A stretch of DNA of 5,828 nt, from the IMG/VR virus record IMGVR_UViG_2700989162_000011; one strand, 5' to 3'. Shown here piece by piece: positions 1-5,828 of the stretch. The DNA comes from a virus (Duplodnaviria; Heunggongvirae; Uroviricota; Caudoviricetes). Position 1 is the first letter of the stretch, and each line of letters opens with the position of its first letter. The position numbers were made by a program, and so were the translations under genes. The notes under the pieces are model-generated. The model saw only the letters and a list, made by a program, of their open reading frames with translations. It had not been told where the DNA came from and searched no databases.

Positions 1-16
1 AACTAGTATTAAGACT

Positions 17-34
17 ATCACTTAAATAAGTGAT
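17..34. promoter_or_regulatory. Perfect inverted repeat ATCACTTA-aa-TAAGTGAT, operator-like palindrome about 45 bp upstream of the ORF starting at 78
   Basis: Read directly: 8-bp arms at 17..24 and 27..34 are exact reverse complements with a 2-bp centre. AT-rich with no following T-tract, so more like a protein-binding site than a terminator. Confidence 0.3.
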
Positions 35-77
35 ACTGGTTGTCTGGAGATTCAGGGGGCCAGTCTAGTCAGACCCT

Positions 78-428
78 ATGTTTTGTGTGTATCAAAAGCG
101 CGAAATCGTTGTTGATGCTGATTATGACTATGACCGGATTGTCTGGGTTGATGAAGATGGCAATGAAGCCAATAAACGCCAAAGTCGTCGTCTCGAACTA
201 CTTCACGAAAACTTTCGAGAGCCACCAGAAAAATGGCGGCGCGTTGCTGTGAAAGATATTGATGAATTCGTTACCTGCTGTTTCACCGAACAGGGTTGTA
301 AAGACTACCTGGCAGCCAATGGTCACAATCTTCGCTTGCCATTTATATATGTAAATGGCGGTTTCAGGAACGCTGAATATATCGGCATAAGAAACTGGCT
401 TGCTGGCATTCGCATCAAAGGAGAGTGA
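78..428 (+). CDS. Hypothetical small prophage accessory protein (116 aa), function unknown
   Basis: Open frame with protein-like charged composition, same strand as the downstream ea-like genes. In-frame stop at 66..68, so the start is inside the window. No convincing Shine-Dalgarno before ATG 78 (GGGGG at 55..59 is 18 nt away). Occupies the position lambda ea22 has relative to ea8.5, but is shorter than my recollection of Ea22. Confidence 0.45.
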   Translation: MFCVYQKREIVVDADYDYDRIVWVDEDGNEANKRQSRRLELLHENFREPPEKWRRVAVKDIDEFVTCCFTEQGCKDYLAANGHNLRLPFIYVNGGFRNAEYIGIRNWLAGIRIKGE

Positions 429-630
429 GATGAGCAGGAATACGGGTTTGTAAAAGATAACGCTTGTGAAAATGCTGAATTTCGCGTCGTCTTCACAGCG
501 ATGCCAGAGTCTGTAGTGTCAGATGATGACCGTACTCAAACATCGGGTTGAGTATTATCTTACTGTTTCTTTACATAAACATTGCTGATACCGTTTAGCT
601 GAAACGACATACATTGCAAGGAGTTTATAA

Positions 631-912
631 ATGAGTATCAATGAGTTAGAGTCTGAGCAAAAAGATTGGGCGTTATCAATGTTGTGCAGATCCGGTGTCT
701 TGTCTCCATGCAGACATCACGAAGGTGTTTATGTAGATGAAGGTATAGATATAGAGTCGGCATACAAATATTCCATGAAGGTTTATAAGTCTAATGAAGA
801 CAAATCCCCATTCTGCAATGTGCGAGAAATGACTGATACCGTGCAAAATTATTATCATGAGTACGGTGGAAACGATACTTGCCCTCTCTGTACAAAACAT
901 ATAGATGATTAA
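631..912 (+). CDS. ea8.5: Ea8.5-like small Cys/His-rich (putative zinc-binding) phage protein, 93 aa
   Basis: Strong SD AAGGAG at 618..623, 7 nt before ATG 631. Length, N-terminus MSINELESEQ and Cys/His pattern (SPCRHH ... FC ... CPLC) match my recollection of phage lambda Ea8.5. Followed by an intrinsic terminator. Not verified by search. Confidence 0.72.
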   Translation: MSINELESEQKDWALSMLCRSGVLSPCRHHEGVYVDEGIDIESAYKYSMKVYKSNEDKSPFCNVREMTDTVQNYYHEYGGNDTCPLCTKHIDD

Positions 913-930
913 ACCAAATATTACATAACA

Positions 931-957
931 ATCCTCGCATTCGCGGGGATTTCTTTT
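931..957 (+). terminator. Rho-independent terminator downstream of the Ea8.5-like gene
   Basis: Stem 931..938 (ATCCTCGC) pairs with 943..950 (GCGGGGAT), including one G-U pair; loop ATTC; followed by TTCTTTTAT. Confidence 0.6.
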
Positions 958-1000
958 ATCTGAACTCGCTACGGAGGGTTTTGTTTTATGGAGATGATAA

Positions 1001-1168
1001 ATGCACTTCCGAGTTACAGGTGAATGGAATGGAGAACCATTCAACAGAGTTATCGAAGCCGAGAACATCAGCGACTGCTATGACCACTGGATGCTGTGGG
1101 CGCAGATAGCACATGCAGACGTAACCAATATTCGAATTGAAGAACTGAAAGAACACCAAGCCGCCTGA
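1001..1168 (+). CDS. Small hypothetical phage protein, 55 aa (MHFRVTGEWNGEPFNRVIEAENISDCYDHWMLWAQIAHADVTNIRIEELKEHQAA); not in supplied ORF track
   Basis: Translated by hand. GGAG at 990..993 lies 7 nt before ATG 1001 (GGAGGG also at 973..978). Stop TGA 1166..1168 sits in the loop of a strong intrinsic terminator. Same position relative to ea8.5 as the 55-codon ORF I recall in lambda. Confidence 0.55.
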   Translation: MHFRVTGEWNGEPFNRVIEAENISDCYDHWMLWAQIAHADVTNIRIEELKEHQAA

Positions 1169-1180
1169 TGGCGGTTTTTT
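1158..1180 (+). terminator. Rho-independent terminator overlapping the stop codon of the 55-aa ORF
   Basis: AAGCCGCC (1158..1165), loop TGAT, GGCGGTTT (1170..1177): five G-C pairs plus G-U and A-U pairs, then a run of six T (1175..1180). Confidence 0.7.
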
Positions 1181-1194
1181 ATTGGAGACAAGAA

Positions 1195-1539
1195 ATGTCA
1201 GATTTGGCTATGAAGGTTTTGAAATGGCAATCGACTGGCGATGTCGGCATCAGTAGCGCAACTCTTGCCTCAATCGCATGTGGACTGAAAAAGAATATCT
1301 ATGGTCATCACTTCGGCGCTCCACATGACGCAGCCGATTTCAGACGATGCGTTGCACTTGTTGAGCAGATCCCAGAAATCAGAGATTCATTCGACAAGGT
1401 TGCAAAGCGCGTTCCGGCATTCAAAGGCATCCTCAACGAATGGGATTCCCTCGTTGATCTGTTGAAGTCTGAAATGAAGATACACGGAAACAAAGCACCA
1501 GAGACTTACAGAAGAATTAGCGAGTTACGCAAGGACTAA
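1195..1539 (+). CDS. Hypothetical prophage protein, 114 aa, function unknown
   Basis: ORF track starts at ATG 1168, but that ATG lies inside the terminator loop with no SD. ATG 1195 is in the same frame and preceded by GGAG at 1184..1187 with 7-nt spacing, so it is the more plausible start. Sits between the lambda-like ea genes and the P22-like xis. No family recognised. Confidence 0.6.
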   Translation: MSDLAMKVLKWQSTGDVGISSATLASIACGLKKNIYGHHFGAPHDAADFRRCVALVEQIPEIRDSFDKVAKRVPAFKGILNEWDSLVDLLKSEMKIHGNKAPETYRRISELRKD

Positions 1540-1544
1540 CCACA

Positions 1545-1563
1545 GCCTCATACTCGATGAGGC
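1545..1563 (+). terminator. Hairpin (weak terminator or RNA structure candidate) just after the 114-aa ORF
   Basis: 7-bp stem GCCTCAT (1545..1551) with ATGAGGC (1557..1563), loop ACTCG. Downstream CTGTTCATT is only moderately T-rich. Confidence 0.3.
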
Positions 1564-1629
1564 CTGTTCATTGCTCAATGATATCCAGACCTACCGCAAT
1601 AATACCAATCCAATAAATGGAGATTCCAG

Positions 1630-1977
1630 GTGGAAGAAGAAATCTTCACTCGTGAAGAGGCAGCGTCGTATCTGAAGGTAGACAAAGGCACTATCACGCA
1701 GTGGATACGAAGTGGACGACTTCAGGCCGCAAAGATAAATCCAGATAAACCTAAAAGCCCATATCGCATTTGCAAGTCAGACTGCATTGCGGCGCTTAAG
1801 TCTGTGAGACACAATAGCGCGGTGAATGCGGTTGATGTGCAGGAGGTTAAAGCATGTCAATCAAACTACGCGGTGGCACGTGGCACTGCGATTTCGTCGC
1901 GCCAGATGGATCAAGAGTTAGACGCTCTCTTGAAACATCGGACAAAAGGCAAGCGCAAGAACTTCACGATCGTCTGA
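1630..1977 (+). CDS. xis: Excisionase / recombination directionality factor, P22 Xis-like, 115 aa, GTG start
   Basis: Immediately upstream of and overlapping int, as in lambdoid phages. GGAG at 1619..1622 is 7 nt before GTG 1630. Basic C-terminal tail (KHRTKGKRKNF). Length agrees with my recollection that P22 Xis is about 116 aa. The 3' end overlaps int by 124 nt in another frame. Confidence 0.7.
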   Translation: MEEEIFTREEAASYLKVDKGTITQWIRSGRLQAAKINPDKPKSPYRICKSDCIAALKSVRHNSAVNAVDVQEVKACQSNYAVARGTAISSRQMDQELDALLKHRTKGKRKNFTIV

Positions 1978-3014
1978 AAGCAGAAGCGTGGAGAGTAAAA
2001 AATCTCGGGGAATCACCGAAAAAGCTATTCAAGGAAGCCTGCATACGGTGGCTGCGTGAGAAATCGGATAAGAAGTCCATTGATGATGACAAGAGCATTA
2101 TATCGTTCTGGATGTTGCACTTCAGAGAAGCCATTCTCTCTGACATAACAACAGAAAAAATAATGGAGGCGGTAGACGGGATGGAAAACCGCCGCCATCG
2201 CCTGAACTGGGAGATGAGCCGGGACAGGTGTTTGCGACTTGGCAATCCGGTGCCGGAGTATAAACCAAAGCTTGCAAGCAAAGGAACGAAGACGAGGCAT
2301 CTGGCAATACTTCGCGCCATTCTCAATATGGCTGTTGAATGGGGATGGCTTGACAGGGCACCCAAAATATCAACACCACGCGTTAAGAATGGACGCATCA
2401 GATGGCTTACAGAGGAGGAATCGAAGCGCCTGTTTGCAGAAATTGCTCCTCACTTCTTCCCTGTGGTCATGTTTGCAATCACGACAGGCCTTCGCCGTTC
2501 CAACGTTACAGACCTTGAGTGGTCACAGGTCGATCTGGATAAGAAAATGGCATGGATGCACCCTGATGAAACAAAAGCTGGCAATGCGATCGGAGTTCCT
2601 CTTAACGAAACCGCATGCCAGATATTAAGAAAACAGCAGGGGCTCCATAAGAGATGGGTATTTGTCCACACCAAACCTGCCTACCGAAGCGACGGAACAA
2701 AAACAGCAGCGGTAAGGAAGATGAGAACCGACAGCAACAAGGCATGGAAGGGAGCGTTAAAGCGGGCAGGCATTAGCAACTTCCGCTTCCATGATCTGAG
2801 GCATACCTGGGCAAGCTGGCTGGTTCAGTCCGGTGTCTCTCTTCTTGCACTTAAAGAGATGGGAGGATGGGAAACTCTCGAAATGGTTCAAAGATACGCC
2901 CACCTTTCAGCCGGGCATCTCACCGAGCACGCAAGCAAAATCGATGCGATTATAAGTCGCAATGGCACAAATACGGCACAAGAGGAGAACGTGGTTTACT
3001 TAAATGCGAGGTAA
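1854..3014 (+). CDS. int: Site-specific tyrosine integrase, P22 Int-like, 386 aa
   Basis: Perfect SD AGGAGG at 1841..1846, 7 nt before ATG. Tyrosine recombinase motifs readable in the translation: TGLRRSN (box I Arg), HDLRHTWAS (His-x-x-Arg-His), RYAHL (catalytic Tyr). N-terminus and C-terminal region resemble my recollection of P22 Int; thrW is the known P22 integration target. Confidence 0.95.
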   Translation: MSIKLRGGTWHCDFVAPDGSRVRRSLETSDKRQAQELHDRLKAEAWRVKNLGESPKKLFKEACIRWLREKSDKKSIDDDKSIISFWMLHFREAILSDITTEKIMEAVDGMENRRHRLNWEMSRDRCLRLGNPVPEYKPKLASKGTKTRHLAILRAILNMAVEWGWLDRAPKISTPRVKNGRIRWLTEEESKRLFAEIAPHFFPVVMFAITTGLRRSNVTDLEWSQVDLDKKMAWMHPDETKAGNAIGVPLNETACQILRKQQGLHKRWVFVHTKPAYRSDGTKTAAVRKMRTDSNKAWKGALKRAGISNFRFHDLRHTWASWLVQSGVSLLALKEMGGWETLEMVQRYAHLSAGHLTEHASKIDAIISRNGTNTAQEENVVYLNAR

Positions 3015-3075
3015 CTTATTGATTTAAATGGTGCCGATAATAGGAGTCGAACCTACGACCTTCGCATTACGAATG
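3015..3075. other. Probable attachment-site junction (attL or attR) between int and the 3' portion of thrW
   Basis: Inference from architecture: tRNA-targeting integrases recombine within the 3' part of the tRNA gene and int lies next to the junction. Exact core boundaries cannot be set without the distal repeat, which is not in this window. Confidence 0.35.
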
Positions 3076-3104
3076 CGCTGCTCTACCAACTGAGCTATAT
3101 CGGC
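3029..3104 (-). tRNA. thrW: tRNA-Thr (anticodon CGU), 76 nt with encoded CCA
   Basis: Reverse complement reads GCCGATATAGCTCAGTTGGTAGAGCAGCGCATTCGTAATGCGAAGGTCGTAGGTTCGACTCCTATTATCGGCACCA: canonical D-loop AGCTCAGTTGGTAGAGC, anticodon loop TTCGTAA, T-loop GGTTCGACTCC, 3' CCA. Sits 114 nt downstream of proA as in E. coli K-12. Confidence 0.96.
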
Positions 3105-3156
3105 CCTGAAAGGACATGTTCACGAACGTGAATCACGGTGGACAAGGTTAAAACTA

Positions 3157-3220
3157 ACCGGGCGATGCGTCAATGGCCTTGTGAATCAAATGGCTACTTT
3201 TGCATCACCCGGTTTTATTT
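3157..3220 (-). terminator. Long-range inverted repeat between proA and thrW; candidate proA terminator or insulating structure
   Basis: ACCGGGCGATGC (3157..3168) and GCATCACCCGGT (3202..3213) are reverse complements with one mismatch, separated by 33 nt. Flanked by TTTATTT on the plus strand and TAGTTTT on the minus strand. The loop is atypically large for an intrinsic terminator. Confidence 0.3.
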
Positions 3221-4472
3221 ACGCACGAATGGTGTAATCACCAATGCCGATCCACTTGTAAGTGGTCAGTGCTTCCAGCCCCATTGGGCCACGCGCGTGG
3301 AGTTTTTGTGTGCTTACCGCCACTTCCGCACCCAGACCAAACTGGCCGCCGTCGGTAAAACGCGTAGAGGCGTTAACGTAAACAGCGGACGAATCCACTT
3401 CGTTAACAAAACGCTGGGCGTTGCGCATATCGCGGGTCAGGATCGCATCGGAGTGTTGTGTGCCGTGTTCACGAATATGGGCGATGGCATCGTCAAGATC
3501 GCTGACGATTTTGACGTTCAAATCTAATGACAGAAACTCATCGTCATACTCTTCGGCTTTAACCGCCACCACCTTCGCAGGGCCTGCCTGCAACTGTGTC
3601 AGCGCAGCTGCATCTGCGTGTAATGTCACGCCGCTTTCCGCCATTTGTTTGCTTAATGCGGGCAGGAAGCTATCGGCGATGTTTTTATTCACCAGCAACG
3701 TTTCAACCGTATTACATGTGCTCGGACGCTGAGTTTTCGCGTTGACGATCACTTTTAATGCTTCAGCGATCTCTGCACTTTCATCAACGTAAATATGGCA
3801 TACGCCTATACCACCTGTGATCACCGGGATTGTCGACTGTTCACGGCACAGTTTATGCAAACCAGCGCCACCACGCGGGATCAGCATGTCGATGTATTTA
3901 TCCATACGCAGCATTTCACTGACCAGCGCACGGTCAGGATTATCAATCGCCTGCACGGCACCCGCCGGTAAGCCACAGGATTTCAGGGCGTCCTGAATCA
4001 CCGCCACCGTTGCCGCGTTAGTGCGACAGGTTTCTTTACCACCACGCAGGATCACCGCATTACCGGTTTTCAGGCACAGCGAAGCGACATCAACCGTCAC
4101 GTTCGGGCGCGCTTCATAAATCACGCCAATAACCCCCAGCGGTACGCGACGACGCTCAAGACGCAGGCCGCTGTCCAGTACGCCGCCATCGATTACCTGC
4201 CCCACCGGATCGGCGAGGTTGCACACCTGACGTACATCGTCGGCAATGCCTTTCAGCCGTGCGGGCGTCAGTGCCAGACGGTCAAGCATCGCTTCGCTAA
4301 GGCCATTGGCTCGCGCGTCAGCAACATCCTGGGCGTTAGCGTTGAGGATGATTTCGCTTTGTGCTTCCAGTTCATCGGCGATTTTTTCCAGCACGCGATT
4401 TTTTTCGCGGCTGGAGAGTTGCGCTAATTTATACGAGGCTTGCTTCGCGGCAATGCCCATTTGTTCCAGCAT
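3219..4472 (-). CDS. proA: Gamma-glutamyl phosphate reductase (glutamate-5-semialdehyde dehydrogenase), 417 aa
   Basis: Full-length ORF whose translation ([38 protein letters not shown] ... YTIRA) matches ProA as I recall it. Starts 11 nt after the proB stop, the classic proBA arrangement. Confidence 0.97.
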
Positions 4473-4483
4473 CGGCCAGCTCC

Positions 4484-5587
4484 TTAACGGGTAATCATGT
4501 CATCACGGTGAACGGCAACCGGGCCGTATTCATATCCCAGTATTGCATCAATTTCTTGCGAGTGGTGTCCGGCAATACGGCGTAATGCATCGCTGTTGTA
4601 ACGACTGACACCGTGGGCGATATCGCGACCTTCGAGGTTGCAAATGCGGATGACTTCACCACGCGAGAAATTGCCAGTCACGCTTTTAATGCCTTTCGGC
4701 AACAGGGAGCTGCCGCGTTCCAGAATGGCGGCAGTTGCCCCTTCATCTACCGTGATTTCACCCGCCGGCGGCGCACCGAAAATCCAGCGTTTACGGTTTT
4801 CAAGCGGAGTCGCCTGGGCATGGAACAGCGTACCGACGGAAATGCCTTCCATCACATCACCAATAACGCCCGGCTTGCTGCCCGCGGCAATAATGGTGTC
4901 GATACCCGCACGGCAAGCCACGTCAGCGGCCTGCAATTTAGTACTCATGCCGCCAGTTCCGAGGCCTGAAACGCTGTCACCGGCAATCGCGCGCAGTGCG
5001 TCATCAATGCCGTAAACATCTTTAATCAGTTCTGCCTGCGGATTTCTGCGCGGATCAGCGGTATACAAACCTTTTTGATCGGTCAGCAGCAACAGTTTAT
5101 CGGCACCCGCCAGAATCGCCGCCAGCGCAGAAAGGTTATCGTTATCGCCGACCTTAATCTCTGCCGTAGCGACAGCATCGTTCTCATTGATTACCGGAAC
5201 GATATTGTTATCGAGCAACGCACGCAGGGTGTCGCGGGCGTTCAGGAAGCGTTCACGGTCTTCCATATCAGCACGGGTCAGCAGCATTTGCCCGACGTGA
5301 ATGCCATAAATCGAAAACAGCTGTTCCCACAGTTGAATCAGTCGACTCTGCCCTACCGCCGCCAGCAGTTGTTTCGAGGCGATAGTCGCTGGCAGTTCCG
5401 GGTAACCCAGGTGCTCACGTCCGGCGGCGATCGCGCCCGACGTCACAATAACAATCCGATGCCCGGCGGCATGTAACTGCGCGCACTGGCGAACAAGTTC
5501 AACGATATGGGCACGGTTCAGACGGCGCGATCCGCCTGTTAGCACACTGGTGCCGAGTTTTACCACCAGCGTCTGGCTGTCACTCAT
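4484..5587 (-). CDS. proB: Glutamate 5-kinase (gamma-glutamyl kinase), 367 aa
   Basis: Translation from the internal Met ([19 protein letters not shown] ... [11 protein letters not shown]) matches ProB. The ORF track's 396-aa version begins at an upstream in-frame ATG (5674); I place the start at the ATG at 5585..5587, giving 367 aa. Confidence 0.96.
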
Positions 5588-5828
5588 GATTCTCTGCCAT
5601 TCAATTTTAGGAAAAATGATATCAAACGAACGTTTTAGCAGGACTGTCGTCGGTTGCCAACCATCTGCGAGCAAAGCATGGCGTTTTGTTGCGCGGGATC
5701 AGCAAGCGTAGCGGCAGTTGTTTACGCTTTTATTACAGATTTAATAAATTACCACATTTTCAGGTAATGACTCCAACTTACTGATAGTGTTTTATGTTCA
5801 GATAATGCCCGATGACCTTGTCATGCAG
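5588..5828. promoter_or_regulatory. proBA upstream leader and promoter region; likely the divergent phoE-proB intergenic region
   Basis: Non-coding AT-rich sequence upstream of proB. By K-12 synteny (phoE divergent from proB) the phoE start would lie just beyond the window end. No promoter elements confidently assigned. Confidence 0.4.

Follow-up and report, generated by a model that had tools for sequence, protein, structure and literature searches.

The locus raises the question of whether its integrase-proximal part is a direct joint between lambda-like ea genes and a P22-type xis-int module and, if it is not, from which pieces it was assembled. The window analysed here (the whole stretch of DNA, 5,828 nucleotides) had previously been read as such a mosaic arm. 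Our analysis indicates, with a probability of about 0.9, that positions 1-3074 correspond to the int-proximal (exo-xis) arm of a lambdoid prophage located in the 3′ end of thrW and organized as a chain of interchangeable cassettes. The host chromosome would be that of E. coli or Shigella, in which thrW adjoins proA and proB.

Organization of the arm

The cassettes all lie on the plus strand, in the order Ea22-like gene (cut by IS2), ea8.5, orf55, a gene for a 114-aa protein and xis-int-attP. The features of the arm are the following:

1-67, minus strand: terminal 67 nt of IS2, the remainder of the element lying to the left of position 1
68-428, plus strand: Ea22-like gene remnant (3′ part), corresponding to the last 116 codons of HK022 gp37
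402-436, no strand assigned: overlap zone between the HK022-type match (68-436) and the lambda-type match (402-1184)
631-912, plus strand: ea8.5, 93 aa; Pfam PF20735 (Lambda_ea8_5), E = 1e-48
930-960, plus strand: terminator-like hairpin with T-rich tail 3′ of ea8.5, from the terminator scan
1001-1168, plus strand: orf55, 55 aa; phrog_676
1121-1184, plus strand: linker that combines the 3′ end of orf55 with a hairpin and its T-run (1158-1183)
1195-1539, plus strand: accessory gene for a 114-aa protein, like HK022 gp32 and mEp213 gp26; phrog_1229
1538-1597, plus strand: leftover P22-type xis 5′ end (codons 3-22), frameshifted here and holding a hairpin (1545-1563)
1630-1977, plus strand: xis, 115 aa, GTG start, N-terminal HTH_17; PF12728, TIGR01764, phrog_2907 (excisionase)
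1854-3014, plus strand: int, 386-aa tyrosine integrase; PF00589, E = 9.5e-35
3029-3104, minus strand: thrW, tRNA-Thr(CGT), detected by ARAGORN 14 nt past the int stop codon
3029-3074, no strand assigned: phage-derived attachment-site half (int-proximal prophage/host junction) that rebuilds the 3′ part of thrW

The four open reading frames on which the sequence-only reading was based (631-912, 1001-1168, 1630-1977 and 1854-3014, encoding 93, 55, 115 and 386 aa) are real. At the left edge, positions 1-67 agree at 67 of 67 positions with the IS2 copy (463-529) of U82084, the SfX int record, in reversed orientation; ETEC1703 has an IS3-family element whose end is 93% identical to them. They carry the terminal inverted-repeat end of IS2 (IS3 family). 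The window as a whole is flanked by this IS2 end and by an IS1 end. The adjacent segment (68-436) is 98.6% identical to HK022 at the nucleotide level, and the remnant protein, which belongs to phrog_3205, shares 97% identity with residues 120-235 of HK022 gp37. Of the zone at 402-436, 27 nt form the end of the Ea22-like gene and 8 nt lie past it. A 116-aa ORF (78-428) opens with the ATG at 78, an in-frame start that is incidental. Stop codons are present upstream of the remnant in the same frame, and the gene has been truncated by IS2. Annotators should beware of 78-428 as an IS2-truncated gene remnant, and likewise of 1538-1597 as the leftover 5′ end of a xis gene, outside any gene. An exact-match scan with the IS2/Ea22 junction (window 50-94) returned no match in 185,579 representative genomes. 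The Ea22 fragment has no match in PADLOC, NCBIfam, Pfam or the PDB sequences and could be assigned only to a PHROG family of unknown function.

The ea8.5-like and 55-aa frames had been proposed to follow the lambda order and spacing, which is correct: Ea8.5 and its lambda counterpart are 100% identical, the identity of Orf55 to the product of the lambda orf55 frame is 96.4%, the gene order is the same and an 88-nt gap separates the two genes in both. Overall, lambda 29873-29102 aligns to window 402-1184 with 96.7% nucleotide identity. The lambda exo-xis region is represented by these two genes, but neither a lambda-type ea22 upstream nor a lambda-type xis/int downstream accompanies them. Orf55 shares 89-91% identity with its homologues in mEp213 and HK022; it has no match in PADLOC, NCBIfam, Pfam or the PDB sequences and falls only in a PHROG family of unknown function. 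By analogy with lambda, the ea genes would be transcribed from pL under N antitermination.

The gene that follows encodes 114 aa from the ATG at 1195, preceded by GGAG 8-12 nt upstream, or 123 aa when started at the ATG at 1168. Its product is 99% identical to mEp213_026 and 97% identical to HK022_32, and clusters of the protein contain from hundreds to about 1,600 member sequences. No match was found in Pfam, NCBIfam, PADLOC or the PDB sequences. An AlphaFold2 model (pLDDT 93) has seven helices, and a fold search with this model gave no match. It is a common lambdoid gene of unknown function.

The right part of the arm is the integration module. Int is 99% identical to mEp213 Int and 21% identical to lambda Int; its alignment with the 387-aa Int of P22 spans 380 aa at 54% identity (E = 4e-156). 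Int presents the complete R-K-H-R-H/W-Y set of tyrosine recombinases (R214, K241, H313, R316, W339 and Y348), which we take to be the catalytic residues by spacing analogy to lambda Int. Xis is 98% identical to mEp213 Xis and 42% identical to P22 Xis (116 aa) over 113 aa (E = 7e-30). The two genes overlap in different frames by 124 nt (1854-1977), exactly as in P22 (22393-22516) and mEp213. Family membership suggests that Int would be an intact tyrosine recombinase using the 46-nt thrW identity, with Xis as its HTH directionality factor. The window shares this 46-nt block (3029-3074), which is part of tRNA-Thr(CGT), without a mismatch with P22 and mEp213. All 23 positions of the P22 attP core are matched at 3045-3067. 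Similarity to phages stops at 3074, the point where the match to mEp213 ends. In E. coli genomes, a tRNA-Thr is annotated next to proA. In the collection, 824 blocks contain the exact Int protein, and the identical protein is found behind six different ea arrays, always adjoining proA and proB.

Modules and their relatives

The nearest relatives differ from cassette to cassette, and sequence comparison resolves the arm (1-3074) into a mosaic of at least five modules:

68-436: module 1, HK022-type Ea22 C-terminus
437-924: module 2, lambda-type ea8.5
925-1184: module 3, orf55 cassette, common to many lambdoid phages
1185-1597: module 4, HK022/mEp213-type gene for the 114-aa protein
1598-3074: module 5, SfX/mEp213-type xis-int-attP of the P22 integrase family

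A direct joint of lambda-like ea genes to a P22 xis-int module just after the orf55 terminator, serving as a site where new cargo is picked up, is very unlikely. The similarity to lambda does end at 1184, right after the hairpin, and P22 encodes homologues of both Int and Xis and has the same thrW core. However, it is the HK022 gp32-like gene that follows 1184, with xis only beyond it; the xis-int nucleotides are 97.7-98.4% identical to mEp213 and SfX, versus patches of about 68% to P22; and the stretch from orf55 to int is intact in mEp213 and mEp043. The inserted gene, the supposed cargo, is a common lambdoid gene of phrog_1229, and the proposal of new cargo finds no support. The sequence-only reading was therefore right about a mosaic and about a break behind the 55-aa frame, but not about a lambda x P22 hybrid. 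Its P22 assignments hold for the integrase family, the thrW target, the 115-aa length of Xis and the homology of Xis over its full length, whereas a P22 origin, which would call for near-identical xis-int nucleotides, is contradicted by patches of about 68% (1913-2095 and 2548-3074). The xis-int-attP segment is a P22-family thrW integration module at the family level only. A "P22-like integrase at thrW" in E. coli or Shigella is usually this SfX/mEp213 module.

Descent of the whole arm, unchanged and without mosaicism, from one known phage has a negligible probability. The best that can be said for it is the coverage by mEp213 and mEp043, which does not exceed 69%; none of 50,697 phage records covers at least 80% of 1-3120, and divergence is complete to the left of 925 in mEp213 and to the right of 1184 in lambda. 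The uniform similarity to a single phage that would have spoken against any breakpoint is accordingly absent.

Linkers and hairpins at the breakpoints

The breakpoints fall in short linkers that are conserved among phages with differing flanking genes. The first hairpin (930-960) folds at -13.1 kcal/mol (z = -5.0), consists in the terminator scan of a GC-rich hairpin (930-951) followed by TCTTTTATCT, and is kept in lambda, HK022, mEp213 and BS15R-A. It marks the left edge (925) of the similarity to HK022 and mEp213. The second, at 1158-1177, is also GC-rich, is followed by TTTTATT and folds at -13.4 kcal/mol. Both (930-960 and 1158-1183) are predicted to be intrinsic-terminator-like hairpins. 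We found nothing in the literature that settles whether the second is lambda tL3, and it is therefore left unnamed here.

The linker that contains the second hairpin (1121-1184) is nearly invariant across six sequences and recurs with 95-100% identity in 169 phage records, P22, Sf6 and HK620 among them. The annotation of HK140 calls it a terminator, and that of P22 assigns the aI RNA terminator to its opposite strand. The similarity to lambda, HK620 and Sf6 stops at 1184, whereas that to P22 continues to 1201. In HK620 and Sf6, the linker abuts the pI promoter and the cII site. Sites of the cII/C1 type (TTGC-N6-TTGC) near xis occur at chance-level counts, with none in 1100-1900, so that a lambda-style pI promoter cannot be claimed for the xis-int module. 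An identification of the linker with "bsq2" of Sf6 was rejected, as the Sf6 annotation places bsq2 merely abutting the match, with an overlap of 2 nt.

The other linker (1538-1597) was recognized in a tblastn search with P22 Xis, which gave NHSLILDEACSLL in the window and NHSLTLDEACSFLKISRPTA in mEp213. Its hairpin (1545-1563) lacks a T-run. The linker is common to eight loci with excisionases of the SfX type, the lambda/HK022 type or the torI type and is present in 166 phage records. Taken together, about 170 phage records carry the linkers with 90-100% conservation, upstream of excisionases of three unrelated types. One could imagine that selection maintains linkers 1121-1184 and 1538-1597 for a role in the swapping of integration modules, as recombination adapters or as regulatory elements, and that the all-helical 114-aa protein is an early-gene effector acting, for example, in the lysis-lysogeny decision or in host takeover, a combination that we consider unlikely. 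Linkers of this kind could also be passive leftovers.

Origin of the combination and comparison with known phages

The orf55-to-int joint (925-3074) is intact in mEp213 and mEp043, and the remaining joints were found in E. coli prophages: CUVM3 (69-1184), BS15R-A (405-1595) and L018 (926-5828). The order varies among prophages. In CUVM3, Ea22, ea8.5 and orf55 are followed by torI and intS; in strain 162.2, Ea22, ea8.5 and the gene for the 114-aa protein precede a lambda-type xis-int at ybhC; in BS15R-A, ea8.5, orf55 and the gene for the 114-aa protein are followed by torI; and in ES9 and the ETEC17xx strains, ea8.5 and orf55 precede an SfX-type xis-int at thrW. The combination in the window would result from homologous recombination within the linkers, between co-resident or co-infecting lambdoid phages. 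A single crossover in the shared orf55 cassette (926-1184) would suffice, the parents being a CUVM3-like arm (69-1184) and an L018- or mEp213-like arm (from 925/926 onward). Since the whole 68-3074 arrangement was not found in one piece in any sequence searched, this crossover is inferred rather than observed. We tried to place it by means of SNPs and failed: most of those in 926-1184 occur in the window alone (positions 940, 975, 1015, 1060, 1071, 1094 and 1096 set it apart from all references), so that the crossover point within the cassette cannot be located.

The same data could suggest that two co-resident lambdoid prophages were mis-joined during assembly at the shared orf55 cassette of about 260 nt: the window begins and ends inside IS ends, as is typical of short-read contigs, the two best partial matches overlap solely in 926-1184, and the full arrangement is in no record searched. 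Such an artefact is nevertheless highly improbable: complete genomes contain close contiguous analogues of the arrangement (ES9 and ETEC17xx; BS15R-A), and the orf55 alleles found in different arms are separated by many SNPs and would therefore not normally be collapsed by an assembler. Read as a genuine chain of cassettes, the arm illustrates clearly how lambdoid phages exchange cassettes at intergenic linkers that are conserved. The cassettes are all already known from other phages, and the arm is an instance of textbook lambdoid shuffling rather than a new finding.

Among known phages, mEp213 and mEp043 (JQ182733, JQ182734) carry an orf55-gp26-xis-int-attP arm collinear with 925-3074 (97.7% nucleotide identity) and a thrW-type attP annotated "type CP4-6". 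To the left of 925, mEp213 differs, with unrelated ea genes (mEp213_028 to 035) replacing ea8.5 and Ea22, and its Orf55 allele is only 89% identical. SfX, HK542, HK75, HK446, mEpX2 and ECP1 share the xis-int-attP segment (97.4-98.4% nucleotide identity over 1491/1580-3074) and integration in thrW; HK542, HK75 and mEpX2 match 1491-3074, and the match to the SfX record runs from the first base of that record (window 1580) to 3074. Their upstream ea genes are different, e.g., HK97 gp37-like or Sf6 gene 22-like. HK022 resembles the window in 68-436 (gp37 C-terminus) and 925-1595 (gp33, the orf55 homologue, and gp32; 95.7%) but has gp36, gp35 and gp34 in place of ea8.5, and a lambda-type xis-int after the shared linker.

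In lambda, the same hairpin and T-run lie 3′ of orf55 but lead straight into pI, the 72-aa xis and the lambda-type int, without the gene for the 114-aa protein. Lambda ea22 matches in its last 27 nt only, the rest of the gene body in the window being of the HK022 gp37 type, and no similarity of the window to lambda Xis was found. P22, finally, has Int and Xis homologous over their full length, the same xis/int overlap and an identical thrW core, but carries eaC and eaG at the place taken in the window by the gene for the 114-aa protein and orf55. Alignment of the window to lambda and P22 mapped the lambda breakpoints (402-1184), whereas P22, beyond the patches in int, matches at the nucleotide level only in 1121-1201 (98.8%) and 1510-1597 (82%).

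Layout of the prophage arm at thrW

A prophage sits at thrW in a chromosome of the E. coli or Shigella type, and the window carries its int-proximal arm; over the host portion of the window, identity to E. coli genomes is 98-99.6%.

Features of the window (coordinates, strand, description)
78-428, plus strand, 116-aa ORF (Ea22-like remnant)
631-912, plus strand, 93-aa ORF (ea8.5)
1001-1168, plus strand, 55-aa ORF (orf55)
1168 or 1195-1539, plus strand, 123- or 114-aa ORF
1630-1977, plus strand, 115-aa ORF (xis)
1854-3014, plus strand, 386-aa ORF (int)
3029-3104, minus strand, tRNA-Thr(CGT), thrW
3219-4472, minus strand, proA
4484-5587, minus strand, proB

The left end (1-67) shares 100% identity with the terminal 67 nt of an IS2 copy in the SfX int record U82084. 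This IS2 end adjoins the Ea22-like gene around codon 116, which makes ORF 78-428 a truncated remnant rather than an independent gene. The truncation had been overlooked in the sequence-only reading. Upstream of proB, the window closes on the right with an IS1 end (5764-5828); with an IS element end on either side, the window looks like a short-read-type contig broken at two repeats. The same IS1 insertion upstream of proB is present in E. coli MLI108K3 and in two of the loci compared (L016 and L018).

Similarity breakpoints and conserved linkers

The sequence-only reading had described lambda-like ea genes joined to a P22-type xis-int module, and the alignment check proposed with it was performed as a local BLAST of the window against lambda, P22, HK022 and mEp213.

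Local BLAST matches (phage, window coordinates, nucleotide identity)
HK022, 68-436, 98.6%
lambda, 402-1184, 96.7%
HK022, 925-1595, 95.7%
mEp213, 925-3074, 97.7%
P22, 1121-1201, 98.8%
P22, 1510-1597, 82%
P22, two patches within int, about 68%

Ea8.5 and Orf55 share 100% and 96% protein identity with their lambda counterparts and, as recognized from the sequence, keep the lambda order and spacing, with an ea8.5-orf55 gap of 88 nt in both. Lambda similarity stops at 1184, directly past a hairpin (GCCGCCtgatGGCGG) and T-run at 1158-1183, i.e., where it had been expected to end, just after the terminator-like hairpin of orf55. The region is mosaic, but not a lambda x P22 joint.

Alignments over the joints place the breakpoints in short segments conserved across phages with differing flanking genes. 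At 402-436, HK022-type sequence gives way to lambda-type sequence within the final 27 nt of the Ea22-like gene and the 8 nt past its end. HK022 and mEp213 similarity starts at about 925, directly 5′ of a strong hairpin with a T-rich tail (930-960; -13.1 kcal/mol, z = -5.0). The joint at 1121-1184, comprising the orf55 3′ end, its hairpin and T-run, is conserved at 95-100% in 169 phage records, including P22, Sf6 and HK620, where its counterpart lies outside any annotated gene. Lambda, HK620 and Sf6 part from the window at 1184, the start of their pI promoter and cII site, whereas P22 similarity runs to 1201, through a common ribosome-binding site and ATG, before diverging into eaC. The 1158-1183 hairpin is annotated as "terminator" in HK140 and, on the opposite strand, as the aI RNA terminator in P22; the Sf6 record annotates "boundary sequences" in this region. 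P22 (locus L005, 6376-6456) carries, between eaG and eaC, 81 nt that are 98.8% identical to 1121-1201 (3′ end of orf55, the hairpin and the following gene's start codon), despite being without orf55.

The segment between orf55 and xis

The sequence-only reading placed its joint just after orf55 and overlooked a gene at 1195-1539, between orf55 and xis. HK022, mEp213 and RefSeq annotate its start at the ATG at 1195, which has GGAG upstream; the ATG at 1168 (123-aa reading) overlaps the orf55 stop codon (TGATG) and is part of the loop of hairpin 1158-1177. The 114-aa protein shares 99% identity with mEp213 gp26 and 97% with HK022 gp32, belongs to phrog_1229 and is labelled hypothetical in every source. 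Sequence searches of Pfam, NCBIfam, PADLOC and PDB gave no match; the AlphaFold2 model is all-helical and very confident (pLDDT 93), with no fold relative detected in the PDB. Homologues are found in E. coli, Cronobacter and Citrobacter, the most distant at about 57% identity, and the protein is widespread among enterobacterial prophages. The gene is a common one, and not the new cargo suspected at the joint.

The linker that follows (1538-1597) is common to 8/8 loci aligned and to 166 phage records, and shows homology by tblastn to codons 3-22 of P22 xis (reading NHSLTLDEACSFLKISRPTA in mEp213 vs SHSLTLDEACAFLKISRPTA in P22); in the window, one extra T shifts the frame past NHSLILDEACSLL. It is found ahead of three unrelated types of excisionase (SfX, lambda/HK022 and torI types). 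What is left of a P22-type xis, roughly its first 20 codons, stands just 5′ of the real, SfX-type xis. We infer that 1538-1597 is the scar of an old replacement within a P22-type xis, which would now provide homology for further module exchange. In the thrW prophages of E. coli ES9 (L008, 4771-5019) and ETEC1703 (L006, 4769-5016), a ~250-nt unannotated segment, lying from the orf55 hairpin to this linker, takes the place of the 114-aa gene.

The xis-int-attP module and its known combinations

The P22-like character claimed for xis-int stands at the level of the family: Int and Xis share 54% and 42% identity with those of P22, xis and int overlap by 124 nt in P22 and mEp213 as they do in the window, and a 46-nt block identical in all three (3029-3074) contains the annotated P22 attP core (23/23) and makes up the 3′ part of thrW. 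With int patches of ~68%, the module is nevertheless not P22's own. Its close relatives are those of SfX, mEp213, mEp043, HK542, HK446, HK75, mEpX2 and ECP1 (97.4-98.4% nucleotide identity); Xis and Int are 98% and 99% identical to the mEp213 proteins, and Int is 21% identical to that of lambda. Similarity to phages ends at 3074, the prophage/host junction. The catalytic domain of Int is PF00589 and its active site is intact, R214, K241, H313, R316, W339 and Y348 all being found; the long Xis has an N-terminal HTH_17 domain; as in their family, both would carry out integration and excision at thrW. The assembly collection has the exact Int protein in 824 blocks; in the six places listed (L016-L021), it follows six different ea-gene arrays, always at thrW next to proA/proB. 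One of these, L018 (GCA_002917795.1), matches 926-5828 at 99.65%, IS1 included.

The stretch 68-3074 was not found as one piece in any single record searched; all its pairwise joints are, however, already known from other records.

Records sharing parts of the arrangement
mEp213, mEp043, L018 and many E. coli genomes: match 925/926-3074 and further
E. coli CUVM3: match 69-1184, then torI and intS
BS15R-A and about a dozen further genomes: match 405-1595, then torI
Strain 162.2: Ea22, ea8.5, 114-aa gene, lambda-type xis-int at ybhC
ES9 and ETEC17xx strains: ea8.5, orf55, SfX-type xis-int at thrW; 114-aa gene absent

A single crossover between a CUVM3-like and an L018/mEp213-like arm in the shared 926-1184 cassette would yield the window, at a point that is not locatable within it because the orf55 allele of the window has private SNPs. 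From what is known of the family, homologous recombination within the linkers would generate new cassette combinations, and the ea genes would be early genes transcribed leftward from pL, N antitermination allowing readthrough of the hairpins. Cassette composition, breakpoints, the intact Int active site, att core, hairpins and IS2 truncation are shown by the sequence itself. What the sequence-only reading observed was right for the most part, its interpretation half right. Combinatorial cassette exchange has long been described in lambdoid phages, and the present arrangement is an ordinary lambdoid mosaic of a kind already known.
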